Assembly (NCBI GenBank): GCA_963696405.1
Contig: CAVOJY010000003.1
Location: 66,407-130,406 of the forward strand
Length of the DNA: 64,000 nucleotides
Source of the DNA: an uncultured Chloroflexia bacterium
GTDB lineage: Bacteria; Chloroflexota; Limnocylindria; Limnocylindrales; CSP1-4
Direction of reading: 5' to 3'
Positions 22,391 to 55,603 of this stretch are shown in pieces. The notes beneath the pieces were generated by a model. The model made no database searches. It worked only from the letters and a program-made list of their open reading frames with translations, and was not told where the DNA came from. The translations under genes and the position numbers were made by a program. How positions within the stretch are numbered: the stretch's first letter is position 1; each line of letters begins with the position of its first letter.

Positions 22391-22406
22391 CGGTTCTCCG
22401 TCCTGC

Positions 22407-43113: not shown

Positions 43114-43974
43114 CTGTCCTCGAACCGCCCCACCTCGAAGTCCGCGACCCGGCGGGAACGGCGCGCCGCCGAGCGCGATCAGCGCCGCCAGGCGGCCCCG
43201 AAGCCGTCGGGACTGTCGGTCCGGATCCCGCCCATCGCGTGGATCACGGGCGCTGCGATCGCCGTGGGCGTGCTCGTCATCATCATCGCTGTCGTGGCGA
43301 TCGGTGGGCGCGGCGGCCCGAGCGTCGCGCTGACCAAGCCCGCCGAGCTGGCGCCCAGCGAACTCATCGACGGTCGCTCGATTGGGTCGGCGGAGGCGCC
43401 GGCGCAGATGGATGTCTGGGCGGACTACCAGTGCCCCGGCTGCGGCATCTTCAGCGAAGACGTCGAACCGCGGCTGATCAACCAGTACGTCCGGCAGGGC
43501 AACCTCCGGATCACGTTCCGCGATTTCGCTTTCCTGGGCCAGGAATTGCTCGATGCCGCGGTGGCCGCCCGCTGCGCCGGTGAACAGGGGCAGTTCTGGC
43601 ACTACATGCAGTACGTCTTCGCGAACCAGAGCGGCGAGAACCAGGGCCGGTTCACCCGGGCGTTCCTCGACAGCGTCGCCCGCGAGCTGGGCCTCGACGT
43701 GAACGCGTTCGGTTCCTGCCTGGCCGGCACCAAGGCGAAGCAGGCCGTGGCTGACGAGACCAACCAGGGAGGCGCCGTCCCCATCAGCTCGACTCCAACG
43801 CTCATCGTGAATGGCCAGAAGGTCGCCTCGCTCGAGTTCGGTGTCATCACGAAGGCCATCGATGACGCGATCGCCGCCGCGCAGGGAGGCACCCCTGCGC
43901 CGGGATCGCCGGCGGCCAGCGGGCCGCCCGCGGCGAGCTCGTCGCCCGTGACCACCCCGACGCCGACACCGTGA
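43114..43974 (+). CDS. DsbA-family thiol:disulfide oxidoreductase, membrane-anchored
   Basis: TM anchor AWITGAAIAVGVLVIIIAVVAIG and active site DYQCPGCGIF. No in-frame ATG/GTG follows the strong AAAGGAG SD. A CTG at 43114 is the best-placed candidate, so the start is uncertain. Confidence 0.7.
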   Translation: MSSNRPTSKSATRRERRAAERDQRRQAAPKPSGLSVRIPPIAWITGAAIAVGVLVIIIAVVAIGGRGGPSVALTKPAELAPSELIDGRSIGSAEAPAQMDVWADYQCPGCGIFSEDVEPRLINQYVRQGNLRITFRDFAFLGQELLDAAVAARCAGEQGQFWHYMQYVFANQSGENQGRFTRAFLDSVARELGLDVNAFGSCLAGTKAKQAVADETNQGGAVPISSTPTLIVNGQKVASLEFGVITKAIDDAIAAAQGGTPAPGSPAASGPPAASSSPVTTPTPTP

Positions 43975-44405
43975 ACCGGGAACGGACGATCCTGGGGGCC
44001 GCCCTCACGGCCCTGGCGATCGTCGCCGTGGTCACCTCCGGCTACCTGGCCTGGGTGAAGCTCGCAGGGATCATCCCCGAGTGCGGCCCGGTCAAGGGGT
44101 GCGAGACGGTCGAGGCGAGCCCGTACAGCGAGATCTTCGGCATTCCCGTGGCCCTGCCCGGTTTGCTCATGTCGCTGGCGATCCTCGTCAGCGTCGTGGC
44201 CTGGTGGTGGTCGGGCGATCGCCGCCTCCTCTACGTCCCGTATGCCCTGGGCATCCTCGGCCTGTTCGTGGTCGGGTACCTGACGTACCTCGAGCTGTTC
44301 GTCATCCACGCCATCTGCATCTGGTGCGTGACATTTGCGATCGCGATCGTCGCCGGCTGGATCGTCACGCTCGTGGCCATGCGGCGGACGGCCGCGAGCG
44401 GCTGA
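43971..44405 (+). CDS. Vitamin K epoxide reductase (VKOR) family protein
   Basis: Four TM segments, loop cysteines ECGPVKGC and redox motif CIWC. Overlaps the DsbA stop. DsbA-VKOR is the usual actinobacterial pairing. Confidence 0.85.
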   Translation: MNRERTILGAALTALAIVAVVTSGYLAWVKLAGIIPECGPVKGCETVEASPYSEIFGIPVALPGLLMSLAILVSVVAWWWSGDRRLLYVPYALGILGLFVVGYLTYLELFVIHAICIWCVTFAIAIVAGWIVTLVAMRRTAASG

Positions 44406-44427
44406 CGGCGGCCGGGGAGGCAGCGGC

Positions 44428-46464
44428 ATGCGGCTCTGGGGAGGGCGTTTCACGGGAGAAAGCGATCCGGGCGTTGCAGCGTTCACGCGGTCGCTCGAGA
44501 TCGACCGCCTCCTGGCGGCCGACGACATCGCAGGCTCGATCGCCCACGTGCACGGCCTCCTCCGCGCTGCCCTCGTCTCCCAGGCCGATGCTGACTCGAT
44601 CGTGGCTGGGCTGGAGGCGCTCCGCTCGGAGATCGAGGCTGGCACCTTCCCCTGGGACCCGGCGCTCGAGGATGTCCACCTCAACGTCGAGGCGGCCCTC
44701 ACCGCCCGGATCGGCCCTGTCGCCGGGAGGCTGCATACAGGGCGGTCCAGGAACGACCAGGTTGCGCTCGACCTGCGGCTCTGGCTTCGCCGGACGAGCC
44801 GCGACGTCGACGCGGGCGCCCGGGACCTGCAGCGAGCCCTGGTCGAACGGGCGGAGCGGGACGGGGAGGCGGTCCTGCCCGGGATGACGCACGGACAACC
44901 GGCACAACCGGTGCTCCTCGCGCACCATCTCCTGGCCTACGTCGAGATGCTCGAGCGCGACCGCGGTCGCTTCGTCGACGCGCAGCGCCGGGCCGATCGC
45001 TGCCCGCTCGGCGCGGGAGCGCTGGCAGGCGCCGGGTTCGCCCTGGACCGCGAAGCAACCGCCGCGGAGCTCGGGTTCGCGGGCGTCACCACCAACTCGA
45101 TCGACGCAGTGAGCGACCGCGATTTCGTGGTGGAGTTCCTGTCGGCGGCCGCGCTCTGCATGACCCACCTCTCGAGGCTGGCCGAGGAGCTCGTGTGGTG
45201 GTCGAACCCGGCGTTCGGCTGGGTCGAGCTCTCGGACGCGCACGCCACCGGCTCCTCGATGATGCCGAACAAGAAGAACCCCGACCCGTGCGAGCTCGTG
45301 CGGGGGCGCGCCGCCCGCGTCCACGGGCATCTGACGACCATGCTCGGCGTACTCAAGGGGCTGCCGCTGGCCTACCAGCGCGACCTCCAGGAGGACAAGG
45401 CGCCGCTCTTCGACACCGCGGACGTGCTTGAAGCGTCGCTGCGGGTCATGGCGGCGGTCATCGGGGGGCTCACCTTCCACCCGGAGCGGATGCGCCGTGC
45501 CGCGCTGACCGGGCACGTCACGGCTACTTCGGTCGCCGACGCGCTGGTCGAACGCGGGCTGCCGTTCCGGGCTGCGCATCATGTCGTCGGCCGCCTCGTG
45601 GCGGAGGCTGAGGGGGCGGGGGTGCGCCTGGACGAGCTTCCGGACTCGGCGTTCTCGGCCGCGCTCGCCGCGGAGGAGCATGACGACGCGCGCCGGATCG
45701 CGTCCCAGGCCCGGGAGACGGAGACGCTCGCGGCGGCCCTCCGCGAAGCCGCGACGCTCGAGGCCGCGATCGCGCGCCCCCGCGTCACCGGAGGTACCGC
45801 ACCGGAACGGGTCCGCGACGCGGTCGTGGCGGCACGGCGCCGGCTCGACGAGGACTGGCGAGCAGCCTGGGATGAGCGCCACGCGGCGGAGGAGCACATC
45901 GAGGCTGCGGACCCCAATCCCCACCTGGTCGCCGAGGTGAGCGGGCTGGCGCCCGGACGGGCCCTCGACCTGGCAACCGGCGCCGGGACGAACGCGTTGT
46001 GGCTCGCCGCGCACGGGTGGCACGTCACCGCGATCGACTTCTCGAGGGTCGGGCTCGAGAAGGCGCGTCACCAGGCGGGCGAGGCGGGTCTTGCCGTGGA
46101 CTGGGTCCTGGCCGACCTCCGCGAGTTCGACCCGCCGCGGCGCGCCTACGACCTGGTGACCATCGCGTTCCTCCACCTGCCCGTCGACGAGCGCCGCCCG
46201 ATCTACCGCCGGGCAGCGGAGGCCGTGGCCCCCGGCGGCACGCTCCTCGTCATCGGCCACGACCGCTCGAACCTCTCGCAGGGTGTGGGCGGGCCGCAGG
46301 ACCCTTCGGTCCTCTTCACGCCGGACGAGATCGCAGCGGATCTCGGCGAGCTCGAGGTCGTGCGATCCGAGGTGGTGCCGCGACCCACGGGGTCCGGGAG
46401 GAGCGCCCTCGACGCGGTCGTGCGGGCGGTTCGACCGCCTGCCGGGGACCGATCCCCGGCCTGA
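44428..46464 (+). CDS. argH: Argininosuccinate lyase fused to a C-terminal class I SAM-dependent methyltransferase domain
   Basis: MRLWGGRFTGE..., GRSRNDQV and GSSMMPNKKNPDPCE signature, then about 200 aa with ALDLATGAGTNALWLAAHGWHVTAIDFS...LVTIAFLHLP...PGGTLLVIGH. GGGGAGG SD before ATG 44428. Confidence 0.85.
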   Translation: MRLWGGRFTGESDPGVAAFTRSLEIDRLLAADDIAGSIAHVHGLLRAALVSQADADSIVAGLEALRSEIEAGTFPWDPALEDVHLNVEAALTARIGPVAGRLHTGRSRNDQVALDLRLWLRRTSRDVDAGARDLQRALVERAERDGEAVLPGMTHGQPAQPVLLAHHLLAYVEMLERDRGRFVDAQRRADRCPLGAGALAGAGFALDREATAAELGFAGVTTNSIDAVSDRDFVVEFLSAAALCMTHLSRLAEELVWWSNPAFGWVELSDAHATGSSMMPNKKNPDPCELVRGRAARVHGHLTTMLGVLKGLPLAYQRDLQEDKAPLFDTADVLEASLRVMAAVIGGLTFHPERMRRAALTGHVTATSVADALVERGLPFRAAHHVVGRLVAEAEGAGVRLDELPDSAFSAALAAEEHDDARRIASQARETETLAAALREAATLEAAIARPRVTGGTAPERVRDAVVAARRRLDEDWRAAWDERHAAEEHIEAADPNPHLVAEVSGLAPGRALDLATGAGTNALWLAAHGWHVTAIDFSRVGLEKARHQAGEAGLAVDWVLADLREFDPPRRAYDLVTIAFLHLPVDERRPIYRRAAEAVAPGGTLLVIGHDRSNLSQGVGGPQDPSVLFTPDEIAADLGELEVVRSEVVPRPTGSGRSALDAVVRAVRPPAGDRSPA

Positions 46465-46514: not shown

Positions 46515-46536
46515 CCATTCGGTCCGCGCGGCGCTT

Positions 46537-46560
46537 ATTCGAAATGTCGCAATTCGCAAT
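46537..46560. promoter_or_regulatory. AT-rich repeated element ATTCGAAAT-N6-ATTCGCAAT just upstream of the ArsR-family gene (candidate operator/promoter)
   Basis: Read directly. Each half is near-palindromic. It ends 10 nt before the GTG start at 46570. Confidence 0.35.
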
Positions 46561-46569
46561 AGTGGGCTG

Positions 46570-46917
46570 GTGGACGAGGCCTACGTACTCCAGGCCGAAG
46601 TGCTCAAGGCGCTCGGCAACCCGCGCCGCCTCGAGATCTTCCAGTGCCTCTGCAACGGGCCGGTGGAGGTCGGCGTGCTCGTGGACCGGCTCGGCGCGAG
46701 CCAGTCGGGCGTCTCGCAGCACCTGGCTGTCCTGCGCGCAGCCGGGCTCGTGGAACGGGACCGCAACGGCCCCGGTGTCCGCTACCGGCTCAGCGATCCC
46801 GACTACGTCGAGGCCTGCCGGATCATGCGCGGCGCCATCCGACGCAGGCTGGCCAGGCTCGCCGAGGCGTCGTCCGGGGAGTTCGCGCTGGCGCTCGAAC
46901 CACGAACCAGAGGGTGA
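46570..46917 (+). CDS. ArsR/SmtB-family transcriptional repressor with Cys pair placed as in persulfide-sensing BigR/SqrR-type members
   Basis: LKALGNPRRLEIFQCLCNGPVEVGVLVDRLGASQSGVSQHLAVLRAAGLVERDRNG. Cys in helix-2 region (FQCLC) and in the C-terminal helix (EACRIM). Confidence 0.85.
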   Translation: MDEAYVLQAEVLKALGNPRRLEIFQCLCNGPVEVGVLVDRLGASQSGVSQHLAVLRAAGLVERDRNGPGVRYRLSDPDYVEACRIMRGAIRRRLARLAEASSGEFALALEPRTRG

Positions 46918-46919
46918 CG

Positions 46920-47285
46920 ATGGCAGACCACGAGAAGCTGGTGATCATGGCGACCCACGGACCCGAGGACCGGGTGCGGGCGGTGATCCCGTTCGTGATG
47001 GGGGTCGCGGCGGTCGTATCGGATGTCGAGTGCATCATCGGGTTCCAGGGGACCTCGGTCGAGCTGCTGCGCGACGACACGGCCGACCACATCGAGGTGA
47101 CCGGCTTCCCGCCGCTGCGCCAGCTCATGGACGATTTCGTCGAGCAGGGCGGCAAGATGCTCGTCTGCGCCCCGTGCGTCGAGGCGCGCGACCTCACGCC
47201 CGCCCCCCACTTCCAGGTCGAGCTCGTGCACGCCGCGCGCTTCGTGGCGGAGATCTGCTCGGCAACGAACGCGCTTACCTACTGA
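46920..47285 (+). CDS. DsrE/DsrF-like family sulfur-relay protein
   Basis: KLVIMATHGPEDRVRAVIPF...KMLVCAPCVEARDL. DsrE-fold pattern with a conserved Cys. Confidence 0.8.
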   Translation: MADHEKLVIMATHGPEDRVRAVIPFVMGVAAVVSDVECIIGFQGTSVELLRDDTADHIEVTGFPPLRQLMDDFVEQGGKMLVCAPCVEARDLTPAPHFQVELVHAARFVAEICSATNALTY

Positions 47286-47311
47286 GAAACGTCAGGCGAG
47301 GAGACGGGACA

Positions 47312-47584
47312 ATGGACGTCACAGGTTCGATGAGCCCTCAGGAACTCGGGCAGCTTGCCGACCTCAAGGTCGTGGATGCCCGGGGCAGCGCGTGCCCCGG
47401 CCCGCTGCTCGATGCCAAGCGGGGCATCGCGACCGTCCCGGTCGGCGACGTGATCGAGATCTGGTCGAGCGATCCCGGTACGAAGGCAGACGTGTCCGTC
47501 TGGTCGGCGAAGGTTGGCCACGGCTTCCTCGGCTACCTTCCGGTGGACGGGTACGACCGGGTCTTCGTGCGCCGGGGAAAGTAG
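47312..47584 (+). CDS. TusA/SirA-family sulfurtransferase
   Basis: VDARGSACPGPLLDAKRGI (CPxP motif) and VIEIWSSDPG. GAGGAG SD. Confidence 0.85.
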   Translation: MDVTGSMSPQELGQLADLKVVDARGSACPGPLLDAKRGIATVPVGDVIEIWSSDPGTKADVSVWSAKVGHGFLGYLPVDGYDRVFVRRGK

Positions 47585-47633
47585 GGACGCAGGGGCAGCG
47601 CCGGGTCGCGTCGAGCGTGAGACCGACATCGCG

Positions 47634-48077
47634 ATGACCGTCGAGGCCGGGCCCGGGGCTGCCACGTCGGTGCCGAAGATGCTCGTGATCGCGACACTGC
47701 TCTGCTCGTACCCGGGCATCGACGCCACCGGCCAGGCCCACATGGAGTACCCCCCGAACACCTACGTCATCCCCACGCCGGACCCGGTGATGTTCCCCGA
47801 GAGCTTCTACCTCTACTGCTTCGAGCGCGGGATCGATGGCATCCTCATCGCCTCCTGCGGGACCGACAGCCCGTACGAGGGCTCCTACGAGCAGCTGGCG
47901 GCGCGCATCAACGCCGTGTACAGGCTCATGCGGGAGCGCGGCATCGACGTCCACCGCCTGAAGCTCACCTCCATCTGCAGCGTCTGCACAAAGGCCTTCG
48001 TCAAGGAGGTCGAATCCATGACCGCGGTCATGGACGAGCTGGGACCGGTCGAGCGGCCCGTCCCGGCCATGTCGTGA
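47634..48077 (+). CDS. MvhD/FlpD-like (methyl-viologen-reducing hydrogenase delta subunit family) protein, Cys-depleted
   Basis: LVIATLLCSYPGIDATG...YPPNTYVIPTPDPV...GIDGILIASCGTDSPYEGSYEQ...RGIDVHRLKL follows the FlpD domain order, but several family Cys positions are substituted. Start is 47634 or 47679. Confidence 0.6.
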   Translation: MTVEAGPGAATSVPKMLVIATLLCSYPGIDATGQAHMEYPPNTYVIPTPDPVMFPESFYLYCFERGIDGILIASCGTDSPYEGSYEQLAARINAVYRLMRERGIDVHRLKLTSICSVCTKAFVKEVESMTAVMDELGPVERPVPAMS

Positions 48078-48084
48078 GGGAACC

Positions 48085-49530
48085 GTGGCGCAGGCAGCGG
48101 CGGTGATTGGGGCCACGACGGAGGCGGCCGGGGCGGCCGGAGGCGGCGGCACGGTGGACACGGACGTCCTGGTCGTTGGCGGCGGGATCGCCGGCCTGTC
48201 GGCCGCGATCGACCTGGCGGACCAGGGACATCGTGTCCTCCTCGTGGAGCGGGAGCCGAGCATCGGCGGGAAGATGATCGGGCTGTCGAAGGTCTTCCCG
48301 ACGATGGACTGCTCGAGCTGCATCACCACGCCGCGGATGTCGGCCGCGGCGCACCACCAGAACATCACCATCCTGACCCACACCGACGTGGAGTCGATCG
48401 TCCCGGTCACCGGGGGGTTCGAGGCCGCCCTCACCCGGCGGCCAACCTACGTGGACGAGGATCTCTGCATCGGTTGTCGCCTCTGCGAGTACGCCTGTCC
48501 GGTCGACATCCCGCACGAGTTCGAGGGGAATATGGGCGCGCGGCGGGCGGCCTACATCCCGTTCAACACGGCGATTCCGCAGAAGGCGGTCATCGACCTC
48601 GACAACTGCGTGCTGTGCGGCCGCTGCGAGAAGGCGTGTCCGACCGACGCGATCGACTGGCTCCAGGAGCCCCGCGCGGTGCAGGTCCGTGCCCGTGCCG
48701 CTCTGCTGGCGACGGGATACCGCACCACCCCCCTCGAGGCGAAGAAGGAGTACCTCGGCGGCCGTGCCGCGAACGTGGTCGGCGGCATGGACATGGAGCG
48801 CCTGCTCGCCCCGAACGGCCCCTACAACCGCGTCCTCCGCCCCTCCGACGGGAAGGTCCCCGAGAGCGTCGCCTACGTGCAGTGCGCGGGCTCGCGCGAC
48901 GAGACGCTCGGCGTGCCGTACTGCTCGCGCGTGTGCTGCATGTACGCCGTCAAGCAGTCCATGCTCCTGTCGGGCGCCCTGCCCCTCGCGGACATCACCA
49001 TCTACTACATGGACATCCGCGCGTTCGGCAAGGGCTACGAGCAGTTCTTCCAGGCCGCCCAGGCGATGGGCGTGAGCTTCGTGAAGGCGAAGGTGGCGAA
49101 GATCGCCGAGCTGCCCAACGGCGACCTGGCGCTCCGGGTCGAGCGGATGGAGGAGGACGGGCGGGTCGACGAGGCCGTCCACGACCTGGTCGTGCTCTCG
49201 GTGGGCGTCCGGCCGGGTGACGAGGCGAGCCGGTTCGCGCCCGTCGAACTCGATCGACACGGGTTCGTGCGGTCCGTGGAGCCCAAGCTCGATGTGACCC
49301 TCACCAGCGTCCCCGGAATCTTCGCCGCGGGGACGGCGATCGGGCCCAAGGACATCGTCGACACGGTCGTGGAGGCGAGCGCGGCGGCCGCCCGTGTGGC
49401 GCAGTACCTGGGCGGGTCCGCGGCAGAGCCAGCCCGCGGGCGCCGGCCGGCGGTCACCGTCGAGGTCCGCGAGATGGGCCCGGCCGAACTGCAGGCCGCC
49501 GGTGTGCTGGCCGAGGTCCACGATGCCTGA
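48085..49530 (+). CDS. HdrA/QmoA-like FAD-dependent oxidoreductase with inserted 2x[4Fe-4S] ferredoxin domain
   Basis: DVLVVGGGIAGLSAAIDLADQGHRVLLVEREPSIGGKM...PTMDCSSCI...CIGCRLCEYACP...CVLCGRCEKACP...PGIFAAGTAIGP. Confidence 0.85.
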   Translation: MAQAAAVIGATTEAAGAAGGGGTVDTDVLVVGGGIAGLSAAIDLADQGHRVLLVEREPSIGGKMIGLSKVFPTMDCSSCITTPRMSAAAHHQNITILTHTDVESIVPVTGGFEAALTRRPTYVDEDLCIGCRLCEYACPVDIPHEFEGNMGARRAAYIPFNTAIPQKAVIDLDNCVLCGRCEKACPTDAIDWLQEPRAVQVRARAALLATGYRTTPLEAKKEYLGGRAANVVGGMDMERLLAPNGPYNRVLRPSDGKVPESVAYVQCAGSRDETLGVPYCSRVCCMYAVKQSMLLSGALPLADITIYYMDIRAFGKGYEQFFQAAQAMGVSFVKAKVAKIAELPNGDLALRVERMEEDGRVDEAVHDLVVLSVGVRPGDEASRFAPVELDRHGFVRSVEPKLDVTLTSVPGIFAAGTAIGPKDIVDTVVEASAAAARVAQYLGGSAAEPARGRRPAVTVEVREMGPAELQAAGVLAEVHDA

Positions 49531-51589
49531 CGAACCACGGATCGGCGTCTACGTCTGCCACTGCGGCGGCAACATCTCCGACGTCGTGGACGTCGACCGC
49601 GTGGCCGATGAAGTCGGCCGGCTCCCGGGCGTGGACGTGGCCCGGCACATCATGTTCATGTGCTCCGACGAAGGGCAGGCGGCCATCTCCGAGGACATCG
49701 CCGCGCGCGGCCTCGACCGGGTCATCGTCGCGGCCTGCACCCCGAAGCTCCACGAGACGACGTTTCAGCGCGTCCTCGTCCGCGGCGGCCTGAATCCGTA
49801 CCTCTTCCTTCCGGCCAACGTCCGGGAGCAGGTCAGCTGGGCCCACCCGCACGAGCCTGAAGCGGCCACGGAGAAGGCGATCCGCGTCGTCCGGGCGGCG
49901 GTGGCGAAGGCGCGGCTGCTCAAGCCGCTCGACAACGTGCGGGTGGACGCGGTCCACCGGGCCCTCGTCATCGGCGGGGGCGTTGCAGGGCTGCGCGCCG
50001 CGCTCGATCTCGCGCGGGGCGGGATCGAGGTGGACCTGGTCGAGCAGGCGCCGTTCCTGGGCGGTCGGGCGGCGCAGCTCCACCGCGTCTACCCAACCGA
50101 GGAGGAGGCGCGCCCGCTCGTCGATCGCCTCGTCCAGGCCGTCGTTGCCGAGCCCCGGATCGTGGTGCGGACCCTGACGGAAGTGGTGGGCCTGACGGGC
50201 TACGTCGGCGATTTCGCGGTCACCCTCCGGACGACGCCCCGCGGCGTGGCTGCCCACCTCGCCGGCCCCGCGGCCGACGCGGCCATCGAGGCGTGCCCGG
50301 TGGAGGTACCCGACGAGTTCAACTACGGCCTGGGGACCCGCCGGGCGATCCACCGCCCGTACCGGGACGCCTGGCCGCCCCACCCCGCCATCGACTGGGC
50401 AGCGTGCACCCGCTGCGGTGACTGCGTTCGCGCTGCCGACGCGGCGGGCGCCGCGGCCGCCATCAGCCTGGACGCCACTCCCGCGGAAACGACCATCGAG
50501 GTGGGGGCCATCGTCGCCGCGACCGGCTTCGACCACTACGAGCCACGCCCGGGTGAGTACGGATACGGCGAGCTGCCCGGCGTCGTGACGCTTCCGCAGC
50601 TCCACCGCACGCTCGACCCCGAGGGGCCCACCGGAGGGCGCCTGGAACGGGACGGCCGGCCGGTGCGCTCGGTCGCCTTCATCCACTGCGTCGGGAGCCG
50701 CCAGATCGAGGGGGTCGATGAGCCCGGCCGCAGCGGGCGCCTGAACGAGTACTGCTCGCGGGTCTGCTGCACGGCGACGCTCCAGGCGGCGTGCGAGATC
50801 CGGGAACGCCACCCGAACGTTCGGGTCGTCGACGTCTACCGGGACATCCGGACATACCAGGTGGACCAGGAGGACTACTACGTCAACGCCTCGAAACGGG
50901 GCGTTCTCTTCGTTCGCTTCAGCCAGGAGACACGGCCTGCCGTCGAGGTCGCGCCGGCGGACGATCCGTTCCCGCTGCTCGTGCGGGTCCGCGACACCCT
51001 GACCTTCGGGCGGGAGATGGAGATCCCGGCCGATCTCGTCGTGCTCGCGGTGGGCATGGAGCCGCGCGACATCGGCGGGCTGGTCGAGCTGACGAAGGCG
51101 CCCATCGGCTCGGACAGCTTCCTCCTCGAGGTCCACCCGAAGCTGCGCCCCGTCGAGAGCGCCATTCCCGGGCTGCTGCTGGCGGGAACCGCGCAGGCCC
51201 CCATGGACATCACCGAGGCAACGTCGGCGGCAACCGCGGCCGTGGCCAAGGTCGCCACCCTCCTCGCCCACGACTACGTCGAGATGGAGCCGTTCGTGGC
51301 GAAGGTCGATCCGACCCGCTGCACCGGCACGGGCGCCTGCCTCGACGCCTGCCGGTACGCCGGGGCCATCGCGCTCCAGGAGGTCGAAGTCGAGGAGGGG
51401 GTGTTCGTGCGCCGCGCGTACGTCAACCCGGTCGCCTGCAAGGGGTGCGGCGCGTGCGTGCCGGTCTGCCCGGCGGGGGCCATCGACGTCCAGGGCTGGG
51501 AGATGGACCAGTTCCGGGCCATGATCGACGCGATCTGCAGTGACCCGCCGGCTGTCGAGGCCGTCCCGGCCGGGGGCGCGGTCCAGTGA
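49523..51589 (+). CDS. HdrA/QmoB-like large flavo-iron-sulfur subunit
   Basis: N-terminal RIGVYVCHCGGNISDVVDV, FAD fold ALVIGGGVAGLRAALDL, CVGSRQ...YCSRVCC, and C-terminal ferredoxin CTGTGACLDACR...CKGCGACVPVCP. Overlaps the upstream gene by 8 nt. Confidence 0.85.
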   Translation: MPDEPRIGVYVCHCGGNISDVVDVDRVADEVGRLPGVDVARHIMFMCSDEGQAAISEDIAARGLDRVIVAACTPKLHETTFQRVLVRGGLNPYLFLPANVREQVSWAHPHEPEAATEKAIRVVRAAVAKARLLKPLDNVRVDAVHRALVIGGGVAGLRAALDLARGGIEVDLVEQAPFLGGRAAQLHRVYPTEEEARPLVDRLVQAVVAEPRIVVRTLTEVVGLTGYVGDFAVTLRTTPRGVAAHLAGPAADAAIEACPVEVPDEFNYGLGTRRAIHRPYRDAWPPHPAIDWAACTRCGDCVRAADAAGAAAAISLDATPAETTIEVGAIVAATGFDHYEPRPGEYGYGELPGVVTLPQLHRTLDPEGPTGGRLERDGRPVRSVAFIHCVGSRQIEGVDEPGRSGRLNEYCSRVCCTATLQAACEIRERHPNVRVVDVYRDIRTYQVDQEDYYVNASKRGVLFVRFSQETRPAVEVAPADDPFPLLVRVRDTLTFGREMEIPADLVVLAVGMEPRDIGGLVELTKAPIGSDSFLLEVHPKLRPVESAIPGLLLAGTAQAPMDITEATSAATAAVAKVATLLAHDYVEMEPFVAKVDPTRCTGTGACLDACRYAGAIALQEVEVEEGVFVRRAYVNPVACKGCGACVPVCPAGAIDVQGWEMDQFRAMIDAICSDPPAVEAVPAGGAVQ

Positions 51590-51879
51590 CCGGGCATACC
51601 GACCGCACGGCGCTCCAGCTCCTGAAGGAGCGCCGCGGCCCGCTGCCGAAGGAGCTGCTCGACCGCGTCCGCGCGCAGAACGCCGCCAGGTCGGCCATTC
51701 GGAAGGCCCTGGCAGCCGGTCCCCTCACGCCGCCCGAGGTCGCGGAGGCGGCTGGCATCGCGCCGCGCGAGGCGATCTGGCTGCTCACCGCCATGCGCAA
51801 GTACGGCCAGGTCGTCGAGGAGGGGCAGGACGGCGACTACCCGCGTTTTGCCCTGGCCCCGACGGAGACGCCCCGATGA
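51586..51879 (+). CDS. Small winged-helix-like protein (hypothetical)
   Basis: 97 aa. LTPPEVAEAAGIAPREAIWLLTAMRKYGQVVEEGQDGDYPRFAL looks like a wHTH. Coupled on both sides (GTGA and ATGA overlaps). Confidence 0.55.
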   Translation: MTGHTDRTALQLLKERRGPLPKELLDRVRAQNAARSAIRKALAAGPLTPPEVAEAAGIAPREAIWLLTAMRKYGQVVEEGQDGDYPRFALAPTETPR

Positions 51880-53132
51880 CGGCCACCGCAGCCGCTCCGG
51901 CGGCCGTCCGGGTCGACCAGGCGTTCCTGCCGGAACTCCGTCGCTTTGGCGCCTTCGACATCGATGCCTGCTTCAACTGCGGCAACTGCACGGCGATCTG
52001 CCCGCTCACCGTCGACGGGGAGGCGTTCCCGCGGCGGGCCATCCGCTACGCCCAGGTCGGGATGCGCAACGAGCTTCTGGCGAGCCGGGAGCTGTGGCTC
52101 TGCTACGGCTGTTCGGAGTGCTCCGAGACGTGCCCGCGCCAGGCGGAGCCCGGCGAGTTCATGGCCGCGGCCCGGCGGTACGCGATCGCCGGATACGATC
52201 GGACCGGCCTCGCCCGCCTCCTGTTCACGAGGCCCGCCGTCGGCGCCCTCGCGGCCATCCTGCTCGCCGTGGTGTTCGCGCTGTTCATGGCCGGCGCCCG
52301 CGGGCCGATGCCGGTGGAACAGCTCGCGCTGTTCGAATGGATTCCCGCCGAGCTCGTTCACAACCTGGGGCTCGCCGTCATCATCATCGTGGCGATCGCC
52401 GGGGTGGCAGGCCTTGCCGCGATGTTCCTGCGCCTTGCCCGGGCACGGCCCGGAAGCGCGACGGCGACGCGGCCGGGGGCCGTGGGGCGCGCTATCTGGT
52501 CGGCGGTCGTGGTCGAGTCGCTCGGCCAGAAGCGGTACCGCGAGGAATGCGAATCCGGCGCGGCCACCCCGGCCGGCTCCGCCGCGGGCGTCTCCGCCGC
52601 GGGCGGCTCGCGCCCGGCGGTCGGGGAAGACCTCGTCCCGTGGTATCGCCGCCGATGGTTCGTTCACGCCACGATCATGTGGGGCTTCCTGGGCCTGCTC
52701 GCGGCCACCATGCTTGACTACGGGCTGGAGCTCACGGGGATCAAGCCGACCGGGACGCCGGTGCCGATCTGGTACCCGGTGCGGCTGCTGGGTACGGTGG
52801 CGGGGATCCTGCTCGTCTACGGGACCACCGTGGCGATCGTCCGGCGCCTGAGACGTTCCGACCGGTACGCCCGGCGCTCGCAGCCATCCGACTGGCTCTT
52901 CCTGACCCTGCTCTGGACGAGCGGTGCAAGCGGCTTCGCCATCGAGGCCGCGCTCTACCTGCCCGATCCCCCGGCCTGGGGGTACTGGGTCTTCCTCTTC
53001 CACGTGGCAGTGGCCATGGAGCTCGTCCTTCTCGCGCCGTTCACGAAGTTCGCCCATGCCATCTATCGACCGCTGGCGCTCCTCTTCCGGGCGCTCGACC
53101 GCCCGCCGGGAGGTGTTCCATCGACACGCTGA
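51876..53132 (+). CDS. QmoC-like fusion: HdrC-type 2x[4Fe-4S] domain + HdrE/NarI-like membrane di-heme b domain
   Basis: CFNCGNCTAICP and CYGCSECSETCP, followed by about 6 TM helices with conserved His (WFVHATIMWGF, FLFHVAVAMELV, FTKFAHAIYRP). Confidence 0.8.
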   Translation: MTATAAAPAAVRVDQAFLPELRRFGAFDIDACFNCGNCTAICPLTVDGEAFPRRAIRYAQVGMRNELLASRELWLCYGCSECSETCPRQAEPGEFMAAARRYAIAGYDRTGLARLLFTRPAVGALAAILLAVVFALFMAGARGPMPVEQLALFEWIPAELVHNLGLAVIIIVAIAGVAGLAAMFLRLARARPGSATATRPGAVGRAIWSAVVVESLGQKRYREECESGAATPAGSAAGVSAAGGSRPAVGEDLVPWYRRRWFVHATIMWGFLGLLAATMLDYGLELTGIKPTGTPVPIWYPVRLLGTVAGILLVYGTTVAIVRRLRRSDRYARRSQPSDWLFLTLLWTSGASGFAIEAALYLPDPPAWGYWVFLFHVAVAMELVLLAPFTKFAHAIYRPLALLFRALDRPPGGVPSTR

Positions 53133-53172
53133 CGCCTCGCCCGCCGCCCCCCACCACGAGAGGATCCAGACC

Positions 53173-53661
53173 ATGACCCTGCACAAGGTGACGCGCGCCC
53201 ACCACGCGCACCTCATGCCTCACGTCGATGCCCTGCTTGTCATCGCCGAGATGATCGGCAAGCGGCCGGTCGCCGAGGTCCAGGCCAAGCTCGACGACGA
53301 GTACGAGTTCATCGTTCAGCAGCTCGTCCCGCACATGGAGACGGTGGAGAAGTCCGTCTACCCCGAGCTCCAGCGCCTCCTCCAGAACCCCCGCGCGATG
53401 GCGCCGATGGAGCGCGAGCACAAGGAGGTCCGCCGGCTGATCGGCGAACTCGGAACGCTTAGCGGCCAGATGCATGGCGGAGGACTCGGCCACGGCCAGA
53501 TGCTCCAGCTCCGCCGCGTCCTCGTCCGCCTGTTCGCGATCCTGAAGGTGCACCTCGCCGAGGAGGAGGAGTACACCCCGATCCTCGAACACAACGTGAC
53601 GCCCGAGCGCGCCGAAGCGCTCGCCGCGTCGATGGAACACGCCGTCCGGGAGCAGCTCTAG
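53173..53661 (+). CDS. Hemerythrin (HHE cation-binding) domain protein
   Basis: HHAHLMPHVD..., PHMETVEKSVYPEL, MEREHKEVRRLI and LKVHLAEEEEYTPIL. Confidence 0.8.
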   Translation: MTLHKVTRAHHAHLMPHVDALLVIAEMIGKRPVAEVQAKLDDEYEFIVQQLVPHMETVEKSVYPELQRLLQNPRAMAPMEREHKEVRRLIGELGTLSGQMHGGGLGHGQMLQLRRVLVRLFAILKVHLAEEEEYTPILEHNVTPERAEALAASMEHAVREQL

Positions 53662-53701
53662 CAGCGAGACACCCCGGGCGGCATCCCGCGGAGGGCGGCC
53701 G

Positions 53702-54070
53702 ATGGCGGAACGGAAGCTCCTGATCGTCGTGACGAGCGGGCCGGAGGACCCGCGGCGCTGCGTCACGCCGTTCCAGGTGGCGGCGATCGGGGCCATCATG
53801 GAATGGGACGTGGACATGTACTTCACCATCGGCGGGGCTCGCCTGCTGAAGCGCGGCGTGGCCGAGACCATCCAGCGCGAGCACGGGGGCAAGACCGTCG
53901 GTGAGTGGCTTCACGAGGCCCTCGACCTCGGTGTGAAGATGTACGTCTGCACCAATTCCATGGAGCTCAACGACGTCACCCGGGAGGACCTCCTCGAGGG
54001 CGTCGAGCTGGCCGGGATCGCCACGATGCTCACGATGGCCGACGAGGCGCGTATCGTCCTGACCATCTAG
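53702..54070 (+). CDS. DsrE/DsrF-like family protein (COG2044-type), copy 2
   Basis: KLLIVVTSGPEDPRRCVTPFQVA...VKMYVCTNSMELNDV... Confidence 0.8.
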   Translation: MAERKLLIVVTSGPEDPRRCVTPFQVAAIGAIMEWDVDMYFTIGGARLLKRGVAETIQREHGGKTVGEWLHEALDLGVKMYVCTNSMELNDVTREDLLEGVELAGIATMLTMADEARIVLTI

Positions 54071-54090
54071 ACAAGGATCAGGAGGCTGGA

Positions 54091-54459
54091 ATGGACCGCC
54101 AGAAACTCGTCATCTTCCTGCTGGTCGGCCCGGACAACCCGCGTCGCTGCGTCACGCCGTTCCTGGTGGCGACGGCGGCGCTGGCTGCGGATTGGGACGT
54201 CAGCATCTTCTTCGCCTGCGACGGCGTCCTGCTGCTGAAGAAGGGCGTGGCGGAGAAGGTGTATGCCATGGAGGTCGGACGCCCCCTGTCGGAGTTCATG
54301 AGCGACACCATGGAGCTCGGGGCGAAGATGTACGCGTGCCCGCCGGCGGTCCAGCTGCACGACATCAAGCCGGAGGATTTCATCGACGGGATCGAGTCCG
54401 CCGGGGCCACCTCCCTGCTGATGGAGACGAAGGAGGCCGATACCGTCCTCACGATCTGA
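54091..54459 (+). CDS. DsrE/DsrF-like family protein (COG2044-type), copy 3 (tandem paralog)
   Basis: KLVIFLLVGPDNPRRCVTPFLVA...AKMYACPPAVQLHDI... AGGAGG SD. Confidence 0.8.
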   Translation: MDRQKLVIFLLVGPDNPRRCVTPFLVATAALAADWDVSIFFACDGVLLLKKGVAEKVYAMEVGRPLSEFMSDTMELGAKMYACPPAVQLHDIKPEDFIDGIESAGATSLLMETKEADTVLTI

Positions 54460-55225: not shown

Positions 55226-55603
55226 TCAGTACTCGAGCACCGGGACGCCGAACCGCTCGAAATCGGCGCCGTTCCGTGTCACGACGGTAGCGCCCATCCG
55301 CCAGGCCGTGGCCGCGATCAGCGCGTCGCCAACGCCTCGGCGCGACGTCTGGCCGAGCTCGAGCCGCCTCGCTCCAGCCCACCCTGCTGCCTCCGGGTCG
55401 ATGGCAACGTATTCCAGGGCCTGGAGCAGCACGCGCGCGTCCTCGCGCTGTTCCTGGGTGCCGCCGGACAGGGCCTCGCAGGTGACGATGTCGCAGGTGT
55501 AGAGATCGCCGGTTTCCTCGAACAGCCGCCGAACGAGATCGAGCGCGCCCCGGTTGGCGCCGACGTGGTCGATGATGACGGTGGTGTCGAGGAGGTAGCT
55601 CAT
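55226..55603 (-). CDS. vapC: PIN-domain toxin VapC
   Basis: MSYLLDTTVIIDH...CDIVTCE...DALIAATA...VVTRNGADF. PIN acidic residues in the expected positions. Confidence 0.9.
   Translation of the reverse strand: MSYLLDTTVIIDHVGANRGALDLVRRLFEETGDLYTCDIVTCEALSGGTQEQREDARVLLQALEYVAIDPEAAGWAGARRLELGQTSRRGVGDALIAATAWRMGATVVTRNGADFERFGVPVLEY

Follow-up and report, generated by a model that had tools for sequence, protein, structure and literature searches.

Introduction

In methanogens, and in a sister clade of the system described here, MvhD serves as the adaptor through which a hydrogenase docks onto HdrA. In the methanogen enzyme, a motif of the Cys194/Cys197 type completes the N-terminal cluster across the dimer interface; Cys197 is said, after work by Wagner et al. 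in 2017, to be a cross-protomer ligand. At the canonical Qmo locus, sat-aprBA is directly adjacent to qmoA-qmoB-qmoC with MvhD fused to QmoB, whereas in the operon described here TusA and DsrE adjoin a separate MvhD. A 'type II' Qmo has been reported for some genuine sulfate reducers and also noted in organisms without Apr/Dsr (PMC10504309), hence an Apr-free Qmo-like complex is not entirely unprecedented. Neither that study nor other literature that we found mentions a linkage of TusA/DsrE to a Qmo-like complex. The first-pass annotation of this DNA knew of no characterised system of such composition, which holds for the carrier linkage but has a precedent as far as the missing Apr is concerned.

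Results

Operon Layout

The window, i.e., the whole 64-kb stretch of DNA that was analysed, has a GC content of 71% and contains eleven tightly packed genes that are all encoded on the + strand between 46570 and 54459 (Table 1). Spacing between neighbouring genes is -8 to +49 nt, and three pairs overlap. The identities initially proposed for these co-directional genes are confirmed by Pfam and NCBIfam searches, except that the 97-aa protein has no family match and is assigned by its AlphaFold model. The start given before (46534) is 36 nt upstream of the earliest codon at which ArsR translation could begin. The AT-rich patch in front of ArsR is conspicuous in its GC-rich surroundings, but was not picked up by a scan for the sigma-70 consensus.

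Table 1. Features of the operon, in window coordinates.
Feature	Coordinates	Strand	Basis
AT-rich patch with TCGCAAT direct repeat, directly 5' of ArsR start codon; candidate promoter/operator	46530..46569	+	sequence reading
ArsR/SmtB-family repressor, 115 aa	46570..46917	+	Pfam HTH_5 3e-12; NCBIfam HTH_metalloreg 1.4e-23
DsrE-family sulfur carrier, 121 aa, Cys83-x-x-Cys86	46920..47285	+	Pfam DsrE 1.5e-8
TusA sulfur carrier, 90 aa, Cys28 in CPxP motif	47312..47584	+	Pfam TusA 5e-16
MvhD/FlpD-like iron-sulfur adaptor subunit, 147 aa, C-terminal Cys115-x-x-Cys118	47634..48077	+	Pfam FlpD 2.6e-18
Short HdrA paralog (HdrA1), 481 aa, QmoA-like position	48085..49530	+	methanogen HdrA match, E = 1.7e-115
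Long HdrA paralog (HdrA2), 688 aa, QmoB-like position, no fused MvhD	49523..51589	+	5ODC HdrA match, E = 9e-147
Cys-free winged-helix protein, 97 aa	51586..51879	+	AlphaFold model; no Pfam/NCBIfam family
QmoC-like membrane subunit, 418 aa	51876..53132	+	NCBIfam qmoC 190 bits; Pfam HdrC and NarI-like matches
Hemerythrin-domain protein, 162 aa; lineage-specific accessory	53173..53661	+	Pfam Hemerythrin 3e-11
DsrE-family carrier, 122 aa, DrsE_2/DsrE3A-like, Cys83	53702..54070	+	Pfam DrsE_2 8.6e-16, DsrE 1.2e-14
DsrE-family carrier, 122 aa, DsrE3A-like, Cys83	54091..54459	+	NCBIfam DsrE2 2e-13, below cutoff; 3MC3 match

Gene Order Among Related Loci

The arrangement is a conserved and widespread module. 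All 88 related loci with enough upstream sequence to be informative (62 close loci from GTDB and 26 deep loci from metagenomes) share the core order TusA-MvhD-HdrA-HdrA-small protein-QmoC-like, with TusA directly 5' of MvhD in 62/62 and 26/26, respectively. This is far beyond chance; an adjacent TusA gene in 88/88 loci cannot be reconciled with a random neighbourhood. A DsrE-family gene accompanies the core in 82 loci (57/62 GTDB, 25/26 metagenome), at one to four paralogs per system, in lineages spanning 37-72% GC (37-69% in the deeper set). The clade definitions used here rest on a crude NJ tree. About 336 GTDB genomes carry the module; the hosts are hundreds of bacteria, mostly uncultured, from soil, peat and freshwater. 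They appear to be mostly aerobic heterotrophs. Dissimilatory sulfur metabolism is not a known trait of the dominant lineage, Limnocylindria-type Chloroflexota, which speaks against a sulfur-based function, whereas the repeated presence of TauE/SafE-type exporters in some flanks speaks for one.

The eleven genes had originally been presented as one unit, of which the stretch from TusA to the QmoC-like gene is conserved. Hemerythrin follows it in 45/70 close but 0/80 deeper loci, and a downstream DsrE gene is found in 3/70 close loci while being common among the deeper ones; the hemerythrin and both downstream DsrE genes thus stand outside the core. ArsR precedes the core in 48/62 close loci and is missing from 14/62 close and 17/26 deep loci.

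Subunits of the Complex

The conserved core encodes a membrane-anchored HdrA-type flavoprotein complex facing the cytoplasm, together with at least one DsrE3-like carrier. Its QmoC-like subunit combines an HdrC-type 2x[4Fe-4S] domain, matching HdrC structures at the N-terminus, with about six TM helices and four invariant histidines for two haems b. In A1 and 81 orthologs, eight cysteines, His162/264/376/394 and Cys225 never vary. By hydropathy, the FeS domain lies in the cytoplasm, as does the Cys225 loop, with His162/376 near the outer and His264/394 near the inner face. The 97-aa protein overlaps both neighbours by 4 nt and is translationally coupled; its model (pLDDT 85) has a winged-helix fold whose nearest, weak Foldseek matches are SmtB/ArsR/MarR repressors. 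It is found in most close loci, a divergent form in four loci being missed by phmmer, and other clades of the non-canonical kind also have it ahead of their QmoC-like gene, but it is absent at the canonical qmo locus and in the hydrogenase clade.

Each of the two HdrA paralogs lacks features that the other retains. The short one aligns to methanogen HdrA residues 138-559 and carries the FAD site, DC76xxC79, a complete 2x[4Fe-4S] ferredoxin insert and a Cys267/280/284/285 cluster (cysteines conserved 89-95%), but lacks the N-terminal domain and the C-terminal ferredoxin domain. Its Cys76/79 are the counterparts of Cys194/197 in 5ODC HdrA. The long one aligns over its full length (residues 3-669 to 5ODC HdrA 2-647, E = 9e-147); it has the N-terminal CxCG cluster domain, the FAD site, a Cys389/411/415/416 cluster, a degenerate ferredoxin insert and a 7-Cys C-terminal ferredoxin domain, and reads 'YPTEEEARP' in place of DC194SIC197. 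Among deep loci DCxxC is kept in 32/32 HdrA1 versus 1/43 HdrA2, while the CxCG domain is restricted to the long paralog (38/43); the hydrogenase clade shows this complementarity too, and so does the fused variant. Since the N-terminal cluster domain is present only in the long and the Cys194/Cys197-type motif only in the short paralog, we infer from sequence an obligate heterodimer mimicking the methanogen homodimer. The short HdrA of 44/62 close loci, and of 9/26 deep ones, has a GltD/NfnB-type NAD(P)H module of about 450 aa placed within its ferredoxin insert; the window holds the minority variant without it.

The MvhD-like adaptor is remodelled. Its AlphaFold model (pLDDT 77) finds significant structural matches only among the MvhD chains of Hdr complexes (5odh_D, 5odc_D, 7bkb_F and 8rvu_F; TM 0.70-0.82). 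The canonical CNWCSY motif is gone, CNWC occurring in 0/32 deep loci, and a C-terminal motif aIC[ST]VC is present in 99% of close and 29/32 deep loci. This system-specific CxxC is absent from hydrogenase-linked FlpD and from the C-terminal domain of QmoB.

Among the carriers, Cys28 of TusA is 100% conserved in 70 orthologs. The upstream DsrE has 3MC3 (SSO1125, DsrE3A-type) as closest structure; its Cys83, 100% conserved, aligns with the active-site Cys, and the CxxC pair is found in 100% of 51 close and 6/11 deeper orthologs. The last DsrE matches 3MC3 over its full length (6.6e-13), again with Cys83 on the active-site Cys, and the DsrE preceding it is its paralog. ArsR has Cys83 in 47/47 orthologs, with Cys26 and Cys28 specific to the window; its closest solved relatives include the persulfide sensors SqrR and BigR, plus metal sensors. 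The hemerythrin has conserved His ligands and weakly matches the Fe-S repair di-iron protein RIC in NCBIfam.

Searches for Sulfur-Redox Partners

Reference Sat, AprB and AprA were taken from a canonical sat-aprBA-qmoABC locus (L088). Neither AprA nor Sat had a match in the window or across 167 related loci (87 plus 80 deeper metagenome loci, with flanks of ±8-10 kb), and AprB matched only a ferredoxin motif within HdrA1 (window and 87 related loci). Scanning every ORF of the window and of 93 loci for the CCG-domain motif of HdrB/HdrD returned two matches, both in non-coding junk frames. The absence of AprAB, Sat and HdrB noted at the outset is thereby extended to the relatives. The Pfam-annotated gene lists of the neighbourhoods contain no CCG, GCV_H, AprA or Sat families, no annotated neighbourhood has a sirohaem or molybdopterin enzyme, and approximately 50 ORFs scanned across the window gave no sulfur-redox match. 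The operon encodes no recognisable sulfur-redox catalytic site.

Discussion

We tentatively propose sulfur-driven, flavin-based electron bifurcation as the function of this complex. Sulfide or sulfane sulfur, bound as persulfide to TusA/DsrE, would donate electrons at the MvhD port, a donor suggested because MvhD has an invariant CxxC in place of its canonical cysteines, and because its gene adjoins that of TusA in every case. Electrons would then be split. In the high-potential branch they may run from the C-terminal ferredoxin domain of the long HdrA through the QmoC-like subunit, with its HdrC-like clusters and two haems b, to the quinone pool (downhill), and in the low-potential branch via the short HdrA with its ferredoxin insert to NAD(P)+ or ferredoxin (slightly uphill). 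The first-pass annotation named only DsrE/TusA and quinone as partners; the carriers do belong to the conserved module, but the NAD(P)H module in 44/62 close relatives indicates NAD(P)H as a further partner in most versions, and since the window lacks it, ferredoxin is the likely partner there. The HS-/S0 potential (about -270 mV) lies between those of NAD+ (-320 mV) and menaquinone (-74 mV), which would make bifurcation feasible. Control is probably exerted by the thiol-bearing ArsR-type repressor. The broader reading of quinone-coupled redox chemistry on carrier-bound sulfane sulfur, which we infer, is strengthened by the absolute synteny and by comparing its modules with those of the hydrogenase-linked sister clade, and weakened by the lack of a recognisable sulfur-redox catalytic site; we know of no citable precedent for such chemistry at MvhD/DsrE/TusA thiols.

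The direction of flow, presumably from sulfur to quinone, is suggested by the Mvh-Hdr analogy and standard potentials. Synteny and conserved thiols would fit equally well with the reverse, a persulfide/polysulfide reductase or reactive-sulfur detoxification in which TusA/DsrE-bound sulfane sulfur is reduced to H2S by NAD(P)H (reduced ferredoxin in the window variant), possibly also quinol, under an ArsR-type sensor. The sensor's relation to SqrR and BigR and its invariant Cys point that way, as do the GltD/NfnB type of the inserted module, a family to which DsrL and enzymes active as NAD(P)H:polysulfide reductases belong, and the OsmC, PadR and hemerythrin neighbours, which suit a stress-response operon. 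We nevertheless consider it unlikely. Persulfides can be reduced with nothing but NAD(P)H, which would leave the quinone-linked di-haem subunit and the HdrA flavoprotein pair without need; confurcation of quinol and NAD(P)H onto an acceptor near -270 mV is thermodynamically unfavourable at standard potentials; Mvh-Hdr and the hydrogenase-linked sister clade suggest, by analogy, that electrons enter at the MvhD port; and ArsR, given its patchy distribution, is not core.

TusA and DsrE also have biosynthetic and regulatory roles, and could be accessory (e.g., supplying or repairing Fe-S cluster sulfur, or acting as a persulfidation on/off switch) to a non-sulfur NAD(P)H/ferredoxin:quinone oxidoreductase for redox balancing, bifurcating or confurcating in the manner of FixABCX/Nfn. 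Such an enzyme would have all three redox ports filled by the NAD(P)H module, the ferredoxin-type domains and quinone via the QmoC-like subunit, and would agree with the missing sulfur-redox domain, the weak RIC match of the hemerythrin and the apparent lifestyle of the hosts. It is rendered improbable by what it leaves unexplained: the retained MvhD docking adaptor with its new invariant CxxC, the constant TusA adjacency, the DsrE paralogs kept across such a GC range, and the window variant without any NAD(P)H module. In addition, TusA/DsrE are missing from canonical and hydrogenase-linked loci and, to our knowledge, from other Fe-S-rich Hdr/Qmo/Mvh operons. Least credible, and very improbable, is an ordinary Qmo that works with a partner (AprAB and Sat, or a different known terminal reductase) whose genes lie at another place in the genome, with TusA/DsrE as mechanistically uncoupled neighbours. 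The two flavoproteins, MvhD module and HdrC/di-haem-b subunit are indeed Qmo architecture, the search covered the window and flanks of up to ±10 kb, and type II Qmo does occur in genuine sulfate reducers, but it occurs in organisms without Apr/Dsr as well (PMC10504309). AprA and Sat are missing from the window and from the 167 related loci with such flanks, whereas the canonical locus has them adjoining, the QmoC-like subunit falls under the equivalog cutoff, and TusA is adjacent in every informative locus.

Compared to known systems, domain matches and synteny bear out the early structural reading of a Qmo-like membrane complex inside a DsrE/TusA operon, although its subunits are not those of canonical QmoABC, an identity we reject. 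The QmoC-like protein scores 190 bits against a curated NCBIfam cutoff of 300, versus 351-409 for representatives of the canonical clade, and the flavoproteins are far closer to methanogen HdrA (E = 1e-115 for HdrA1, 1e-147 for HdrA2) than to QmoA (34% identity to HdrA1) or QmoB (23-33% to HdrA2). An HdrB-type CCG subunit as in sHdr sulfur-oxidation systems is not found here; the carrier sets accompanying those systems are mirrored by TusA plus the DsrE3A-like and DrsE_2-type proteins (PMC11094781). In sister clade C, a [NiFe] hydrogenase adjoins FlpD-HdrA-HdrA-QmoC-like, and TusA/DsrE take that place in the present operon, which may be an undescribed route for electrons between sulfur and the respiratory chain.

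Gene composition and genomic surroundings

The identities proposed in the first-pass annotation for the eleven plus-strand genes of the cluster were borne out gene by gene by Pfam and NCBIfam and, in the case of the 97-aa gene that belongs to no family in either collection, by its predicted fold. The genes are tightly packed, with successive intergenic distances of 2, 26, 49, 7, -8, -4, -4, 40, 40 and 20 nt. At the GC content of about 71% that holds across the whole window, automatic ORF calling yields many antisense shadows, and genes were anchored via their predicted N-termini. The family matches, high GC3 and conserved orthologs of the eleven genes rule out chance or mis-called reading frames.

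Features of the cluster and its surroundings
Feature	Coordinates	Strand	Assignment or basis
Block around ComA	15106-22501	-	
ComA (phosphosulfolactate synthase, a sulfite-adding enzyme)	20598-21296	-	Pfam, 4e-59
DsbA-like thioredoxin-fold protein and VKOR	42448-44405	+	
argH-methyltransferase fusion	44335-46464	+	
AT-rich patch with TCGCAAT direct repeat	46530-46569		candidate promoter/operator
Whole cluster	46570-54459	+	
Gene 1, ArsR/SmtB regulator		+	Pfam/NCBIfam
Gene 2, DsrE (DsrEa)	46920-47285	+	Pfam/NCBIfam
Gene 3, TusA	47312-47584	+	Pfam/NCBIfam
Gene 4, FlpD/MvhD, 147 aa	47634-48077	+	Pfam/NCBIfam
Gene 5, HdrA-like, 481 aa (HdrA1)	48085-49530	+	HdrA2 model positions 137-561
Gene 6, HdrA-like, 688 aa (HdrA2)	49523-51589	+	HdrA2 model positions 1-643
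Gene 7, 97-aa protein		+	no Pfam or NCBIfam family
Gene 8, QmoC-like, 418 aa (HdrC-type 4Fe-4S dicluster, NarI-like membrane part)	51876-53132	+	Pfam/NCBIfam
Ala/Gly/Ser-rich insertion in gene 8	52554-52625	+	residues about 227-250
Gene 9, hemerythrin	53173-53661	+	Pfam/NCBIfam
Gene 10, DrsE_2/DsrE		+	Pfam/NCBIfam
Gene 11, DrsE_2/DsrE (DsrEc)	54091-54459	+	Pfam/NCBIfam
PIN-domain (VapC-like) toxin	55226-55603	-	

On the 5' side the cluster is preceded by a fusion of argininosuccinate lyase (argH) with a C-terminal SAM-dependent methyltransferase domain, and on the 3' side it is followed by a minus-strand block of a GNAT gene, the PIN toxin and then argG-argR-argB-argJ-argC. The same argH fusion occurs in a JGI metagenome contig with a 91% identical QmoC-like protein, and a stand-alone methyltransferase of the family of the fused domain lies near the cluster in 14 related loci. 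Just 5' of argH stand a DsbA-like protein and VKOR; VKOR is also near the cluster in an actinobacterial-type locus (L083/L084, about 13772-14227) and in the JGI contig. Between the cluster and argG lie the toxin gene and a small partner upstream of it, a pair that the JGI contig has as well. Directly 5' of the ArsR start codon, amid the 71% GC, lies an AT-rich patch with a direct repeat, a candidate promoter/operator. It was not among the matches of the promoter consensus scan, promoter and terminator scans of the window stayed at background level, and a search of the window with Rfam gave no RNA element. At a distance of about 25 kb, ComA is accompanied by DUF7714, two lyases of the fumarase/argininosuccinate lyase type, a PLP enzyme and a Pyr_redox_2 flavoprotein; this block, so far removed from the cluster, may constitute a sulfite-consuming sulfonate pathway.

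Distribution and conserved core

Relatives of the QmoC-like protein number more than 3,160 at E ≤ 1e-5 in a collection of 5.8 billion proteins, and none of the best 120 falls below 56% identity to it. The closest contig among the matches listed is the 91% identical JGI contig, in which all eleven genes and both flanks recur. Species-level genomes that encode a relative number 336 in GTDB; nearly all of the 80 best are MAGs of Limnocylindria-type Chloroflexota recovered from soil and peat, joined by a few bins that bear the labels Anaerolineae, Dermatophilaceae, Bacillota, Gemmatimonadaceae or Steroidobacteraceae. Metagenomes contribute more than 570 contigs with relatives of the membrane subunit, a lower bound. 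The module is common yet unstudied, and concentrated in soil and peat Limnocylindria-type Chloroflexota.

The survey of gene order in other genomes that the first-pass annotation had proposed was carried out at two depths, and the order recurs in both the GTDB and the metagenome loci. Among the 62 of the best-80 GTDB loci (close loci) that have at least 8 kb of upstream sequence, TusA and both HdrA paralogs are present in all 62, MvhD in 60 and ArsR in 48. A DsrE of the DsrEa type is found in 46 of them, an upstream DrsE_2-type DsrE in 43 and any gene of the DsrE family in 57. The deep survey, queried with more distant members of the same clade, covered 80 metagenome loci of 37-69% GC, 26 of which have at least 6 kb upstream; TusA and MvhD occur in 26/26 and a DsrE-family gene in 25/26. 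When both surveys are joined, TusA is present in 88 of 88 informative loci and a DsrE-family gene in 82 of 88. Based on this recurrence, the core of the system is TusA, MvhD, the short and the long HdrA, the small winged helix-turn-helix (wHTH) protein, the QmoC-like subunit and at least one DsrE, while ArsR, hemerythrin, PadR, OsmC and TauE are lineage-specific additions. For the wHTH gene the count draws on listings of the individual loci and, at four loci where it had gone undetected, on a reading of the sequence itself.

Hemerythrin was considered as a core component. It follows the QmoC-like gene in 45 of the 70 close loci with enough downstream sequence, but was rejected as core on its absence from all 80 deep loci, a pattern which suggests an oxygen-related accessory of aerobic lineages. 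In Limnocylindria-type loci a PadR regulator and another, divergent hemerythrin copy often accompany it. Some loci carry more than one set of genes: L137 has two convergent copies of the system on one contig, and L131 and L098 have an extra TusA/DsrE set beside it.

The membrane subunit, the 97-aa protein and the relation to Qmo

The QmoC-like subunit has eight invariant cysteines arranged as two CxxCxxCxxxC motifs, four invariant histidines and an invariant cytoplasmic Cys225. Its hydropathy indicates about six transmembrane helices with a cytoplasmic FeS domain, and one His pair lies near each membrane face, similar to di-haem-b proteins of the NarI/HdrE type. Cys225 was dismissed as a residue specific to this system, being kept across nearly the whole QmoC family, the canonical clade included. 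After Cys225 the cytoplasmic loop carries an Ala/Gly/Ser-rich insertion of about 25 residues, which in alignment A1 is common to the closest QmoC-like relatives only. The 97-aa protein contains no cysteine and is predicted to be a winged helix-turn-helix (pLDDT 85), with SmtB, ArsR and MarR as nearest folds; on the missing cysteines and the modeled ArsR/MarR-like fold, a DsrC/TusE-like protein was rejected.

An exhaustive search yielded 195 clusters (50% identity) of QmoC-like relatives at E ≤ 1e-30, which were assigned to clades on a rough NJ tree. Only one clade exceeds the cutoff of 300 bits of the NCBIfam qmoC model NF038018, with representatives at 351-409 bits that are 27-34% identical to the window protein; one of its members sits in a sat-aprBA-qmoABC context (L088). 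The window protein reaches 190.4 bits in two stretches, below the cutoff, and so do seven representatives of other non-canonical clades (190-263 bits). HdrA1, the short paralog, is 34% identical and HdrA2, the long one, 23-33% identical to canonical QmoA and QmoB of L088. Both are much closer to methanogen HdrA (E = 1.7e-115 and 9e-147; 390 and 494 bits by phmmer) than to QmoA and QmoB (212 and 79 bits by tblastn, a different scoring method, but the gap is large). The complex is Qmo-like in its QmoC-type fusion and its two FAD-binding HdrA paralogs, and departs from canonical QmoABC at the curated qmoC cutoff and in HdrA2, which has no fused MvhD domain.

A divided HdrA

HdrA2 aligns over its full length with HdrA of 5ODC, the structure of the methanogen MvhAGD-HdrABC complex. 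Compared with the latter, it has the N-terminal CxCG cluster domain, a cluster of the Cys386/399/403/404 type and a C-terminal ferredoxin domain with seven cysteines, but it reads YPTEEEARP where 5ODC HdrA has D-C194-S-I-C197, and its ferredoxin insert is degenerate. HdrA1 misses both terminal domains and possesses a complete 2x[4Fe-4S] insert, its own Cys267/280/284/285 cluster and a TrxR-like domain; its DC76xxC79 corresponds to Cys194/197 of 5ODC HdrA with an offset of +118. The full domain set of methanogen HdrA is thus split over two paralogs, HdrA2 having the N-terminal, TrxR-like and C-terminal domains and HdrA1 the TrxR-like domain and the insert, and both carry GxGxxG FAD motifs. The same division is seen in the deep loci, where DCxxC occurs in 32 of 32 short HdrAs versus 1 of 43 long ones, and the N-terminal CxCG in 38 of 43 long ones. 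A role of HdrA1 Cys76/79 as a free CxxC acting on persulfides was excluded, given their alignment with the cluster-ligand motif Cys194/197. In the methanogen HdrA dimer Cys197 is said to complete the cluster in the N-terminal domain of the partner protomer, as Wagner and colleagues reportedly described in 2017. If this role holds, the complementary losses would make HdrA1 and HdrA2 an obligate heterodimer of a short and a long protomer, in which only one entry faces MvhD.

In 44 of 62 close and 9 of 26 deep loci the short HdrA measures about 905 aa and houses, inside its ferredoxin insert, a complete unit of the GltD/NfnB/DsrL type with Fer4_20, an FAD site and an NAD(P)H site (e.g., L083 5276-7996; L087 5237-7948). 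Among known systems, the NAD(P)H modules of the HdrL, DsrL and NfnB types come closest; DsrL and NfnB are separate proteins, whereas here the module is an insertion. In the loci with this module, the long HdrA has no insert of its own and is about 590-600 aa long. Because the majority of close loci carry the module, NAD(P)H is a predicted partner in most versions of the system, and by analogy it would enter at the branch which in methanogen Hdr serves ferredoxin. The 481-aa HdrA1 of the window lacks the NAD(P)H module and belongs to an unfused minority with its own MvhD cysteine pattern; about 25% of the orthologs have this pattern, and about 25% have the cysteines of the HdrA2 insert.

Remodelled MvhD, sulfur carriers and ArsR

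The fold of the MvhD protein is confirmed by Foldseek, whose significant matches are confined to MvhD chains, from four Hdr complexes (TM 0.70-0.82). Two of the five canonical cysteines are kept in the window protein, and the MvhD motif CNWCSY is found in none of 32 deep loci. A C-terminal aIC[ST]VC motif, by contrast, is 99% conserved in the close loci and present in 29 of 32 deep ones; it occurs neither in a hydrogenase-linked FlpD nor in the C-terminal domain of QmoB.

The CPxP cysteine of TusA and Cys83 of the DsrE proteins are invariant, as is the CxxC of DsrEa in close relatives. All three DsrE proteins of the window are nearest to 3MC3, the DsrE3A-type structure of SSO1125. Cys83 of DsrEa and DsrEc aligns with the cysteine of KMYVCVQS in 3MC3 and is 100% conserved, from which a carrier role is predicted. 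Persulfide sensors of the SqrR/BigR/sHdrR type have a conserved Cys pair (alpha2, alpha5) that forms a di- to tetrasulfide bridge. In the ArsR of the cluster, Cys83 is invariant in 47 orthologs, but Cys26/28 occupies a non-conserved position, with a cysteine nearby in about 40% of the orthologs.

Search for a catalytic partner

A Pfam scan of about 50 ORFs in the 64-kb window revealed no APS reductase, ATP sulfurylase, Dsr, Sox, SQR or persulfide dioxygenase. Sat, AprB and AprA queries taken from the canonical sat-aprB-aprA-qmoA-qmoB-qmoC locus L088 were run by tblastn and phmmer; Sat and AprA have no match in the window or in 167 related loci (87, plus the 80 deep ones), and AprB matches only the ferredoxin motif inside HdrA1 (window and 87 loci). 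A motif scan of all ORFs for the HdrB/HdrD CCG domain (window and 93 loci) gave two matches, both in non-coding junk frames, and no CCG Pfam family occurs in any annotated neighbourhood. The first-pass annotation had described the cluster as devoid of AprAB, Sat and an HdrB-type CCG subunit, and over this range of loci both statements stand. Likewise, LbpA (GCV_H-type) is absent from six neighbourhoods annotated with Pfam and from the scanned window genes, and the cluster contains no hydrogenase genes. Clustering of the flanks of related loci exposed no hidden conserved catalytic partner; the flank clusters comprise only PadR, DrsE_2-type DsrE, OsmC, TauE/SafE, regulators, PntAB and methyltransferases.

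Discussion

In this study, we propose that the complex exchanges electrons between the quinone pool, a low-potential partner and sulfur held on TusA/DsrE thiols. The quinone pool would be contacted via the QmoC-like subunit, and the low-potential partner would be NAD(P)+ in most relatives and probably ferredoxin in the window. Sulfur carried by TusA and DsrE would meet the complex at the MvhD port, which in analogy to Mvh-Hdr may serve as the electron entry. The standard potentials are about -270 mV for HS-/S0, -320 mV for NAD+ and -74 mV for menaquinone. On these values sulfur-driven bifurcation is feasible, and confurcation of quinol and NAD(P)H onto a persulfide is unfavourable; together with the analogy of MvhD entry, they would favour the oxidative direction.

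That the complex acts on carrier-bound sulfur, in whichever direction, appears to us somewhat more probable than not. A sulfur-driven bifurcating mechanism running oxidatively is a tentative reading by analogy, to which we would give somewhat less than an even chance. It is weakened above all by the lack of any recognised sulfur-redox catalytic module; the candidates for the catalytic site are the remodelled CxxC of MvhD, the CxxC of DsrE and the cysteine of TusA. A reductive role in the detoxification of persulfides or reactive sulfur, which would equally place sulfur at the complex, is unlikely. The same conserved parts could also belong to a sulfur-independent NAD(P)H/ferredoxin:quinone oxidoreductase in which TusA and DsrE are accessory factors. 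The NAD(P)H module of most relatives would suit such an enzyme, and the carriers would then recur at nearly every informative locus as accessories only; we hold this to be doubtful, to the same degree as the reductive role. An ordinary Qmo served by AprAB encoded elsewhere would share the general architecture of the complex, and considering the sub-cutoff membrane subunit and the missing AprA across the surveyed loci it is very improbable.

The most far-reaching form of the oxidative bifurcating reading is a third, hitherto unrecognised type of cytoplasmic sulfur oxidation beside rDsr and sHdr, in which sulfane sulfur on TusA/DsrE (or loaded sulfide) would be oxidised at a remodelled MvhD/thiol site and the HdrA pair would bifurcate to quinone and NAD(P)+ or ferredoxin. 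We regard this as a somewhat unlikely proposition. If true, reduced sulfur would supply electrons for respiration as well as a low-potential reductant, with no need for reverse electron transport, to the benefit of Chloroflexota (Limnocylindria), Actinomycetota and others that are abundant and mostly uncultured in soil, peat and freshwater. Already if carrier-bound sulfur is the substrate, the system would represent a new route of the sulfur cycle on land and in freshwater, in oxic or fluctuating habitats whose dissimilatory sulfur metabolism is for the most part unexplained. No other Hdr/Qmo-type complex would then have been seen before to handle sulfur in the absence of HdrB, AprAB and DsrAB. 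If it is not sulfur, a chassis of HdrA pair, MvhD and QmoC is still re-plugged among APS reductase, [NiFe] hydrogenase, NAD(P)H and sulfur carriers, and this touches on an old question, the coupling of quinone chemistry to flavin-based bifurcation in Qmo and Hdr complexes. The complementary losses in the HdrA pair and the new CxxC of MvhD offer concrete experimental handles.

Comparison with known systems

Similar to type I, the canonical QmoABC found in sulfate reducers and Chlorobi with its genes beside sat-aprBA, the complex combines two HdrA-derived flavoproteins, an MvhD-type module and an HdrC-like 2x[4Fe-4S] domain joined to a di-haem-b membrane domain. Cys225 of its membrane subunit and all but one of the four histidines are kept in the canonical clade. 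In canonical QmoB (L088), however, FlpD is fused to the C-terminus, whereas HdrA2 of the window ends after its C-terminal ferredoxin domain and MvhD is a separate remodelled protein encoded upstream. According to a motif scan, the DCxxC of HdrA1 and the N-terminal CxCG of HdrA2 are both missing in the canonical QmoA/QmoB pair. In addition, the window cluster has an extra wHTH subunit, and TusA/DsrE in place of aprBA/sat.

The occurrence of Qmo-like complexes in the absence of Apr is already on record (PMC10504309). Type II Qmo (Neukirchen et al. 2023) is closer to genuine hdrA than to bacterial qmoAB, occurs in organisms with or without Dsr/Apr, among them Ammonifex degensii and Vulcanisaeta moutnovskia, and is of unknown function (PMC10504309). 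It resembles our system, compared by description only, in that HdrA1 and HdrA2 are nearer to genuine HdrA than to QmoA/QmoB. Neither TusA, DsrE nor Chloroflexi is mentioned for type II Qmo in that paper and its supplements (PMC10504309). The type II examples that have been characterised come from sulfate reducers with AprAB.

With the methanogen MvhAGD-HdrABC complex the cluster shares the full-length match of HdrA2, the Cys386/399/403/404-type cluster in both paralogs, the MvhD fold and the match of the QmoC-like N-terminus with HdrC. Unlike that complex, it has neither HdrB nor MvhAG, its HdrC part is continuous with a di-haem-b membrane domain, the homodimeric HdrA is replaced by a short/long pair, and the canonical MvhD cysteines are partly lost while a new CxxC is gained.

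The sHdrA protein is a minimal HdrA with one cluster. Both window paralogs differ from it in keeping multiple clusters, and the membrane link is the QmoC-like subunit. Systems of the sHdr kind are accompanied by TusA/DsrE2/DsrE3 carriers, and type II sHdr feeds menaquinone via EtfAB-EMO (PMC11094781). The likeness lies in the TusA, DsrE3A-like and DrsE_2-type carriers that adjoin an HdrA-containing complex (PMC11094781), in the ArsR-type regulator and in occasional TauE neighbours. By contrast, the HdrB1/B2 (or B3) CCG subunits that define sHdr and the lipoate-binding LbpA that it requires are both absent near the window cluster.

A further parallel in architecture is a sister clade (locus L090, 1-8487) that encodes a QmoC-like protein, short HdrA, long HdrA, FlpD, the small and large subunits of a [NiFe] hydrogenase and HycI. 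We know of no characterisation of this clade. Its QmoC-like protein is 34% identical to that of the window, and it likewise has DCxxC in the short HdrA, the N-terminal CxCG in the long one and a separate FlpD/MvhD. Different are the canonical cysteines of its FlpD, which adjoins the hydrogenase genes, the lack of TusA/DsrE and of the small wHTH gene, and the reversed gene order with the QmoC-like gene first. Judged by gene content, it would be a membrane-anchored hydrogenase of the Mvh/Hdr type without HdrB. The hydrogenase-linked QmoC-like clade is also found at L135 and L165, and at L135 a hydrogenase set of this kind adjoins a TusA-type set.

Taken together, the sister clade and the canonical aprBA-qmoABC locus show a single chassis that connects on its MvhD side to varying redox partners, a position that in this system is occupied by the TusA and DsrE genes. 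The building blocks are all known, and in the openly searchable full-text literature we found no description of an HdrA/MvhD/QmoC-like cluster linked to TusA/DsrE.
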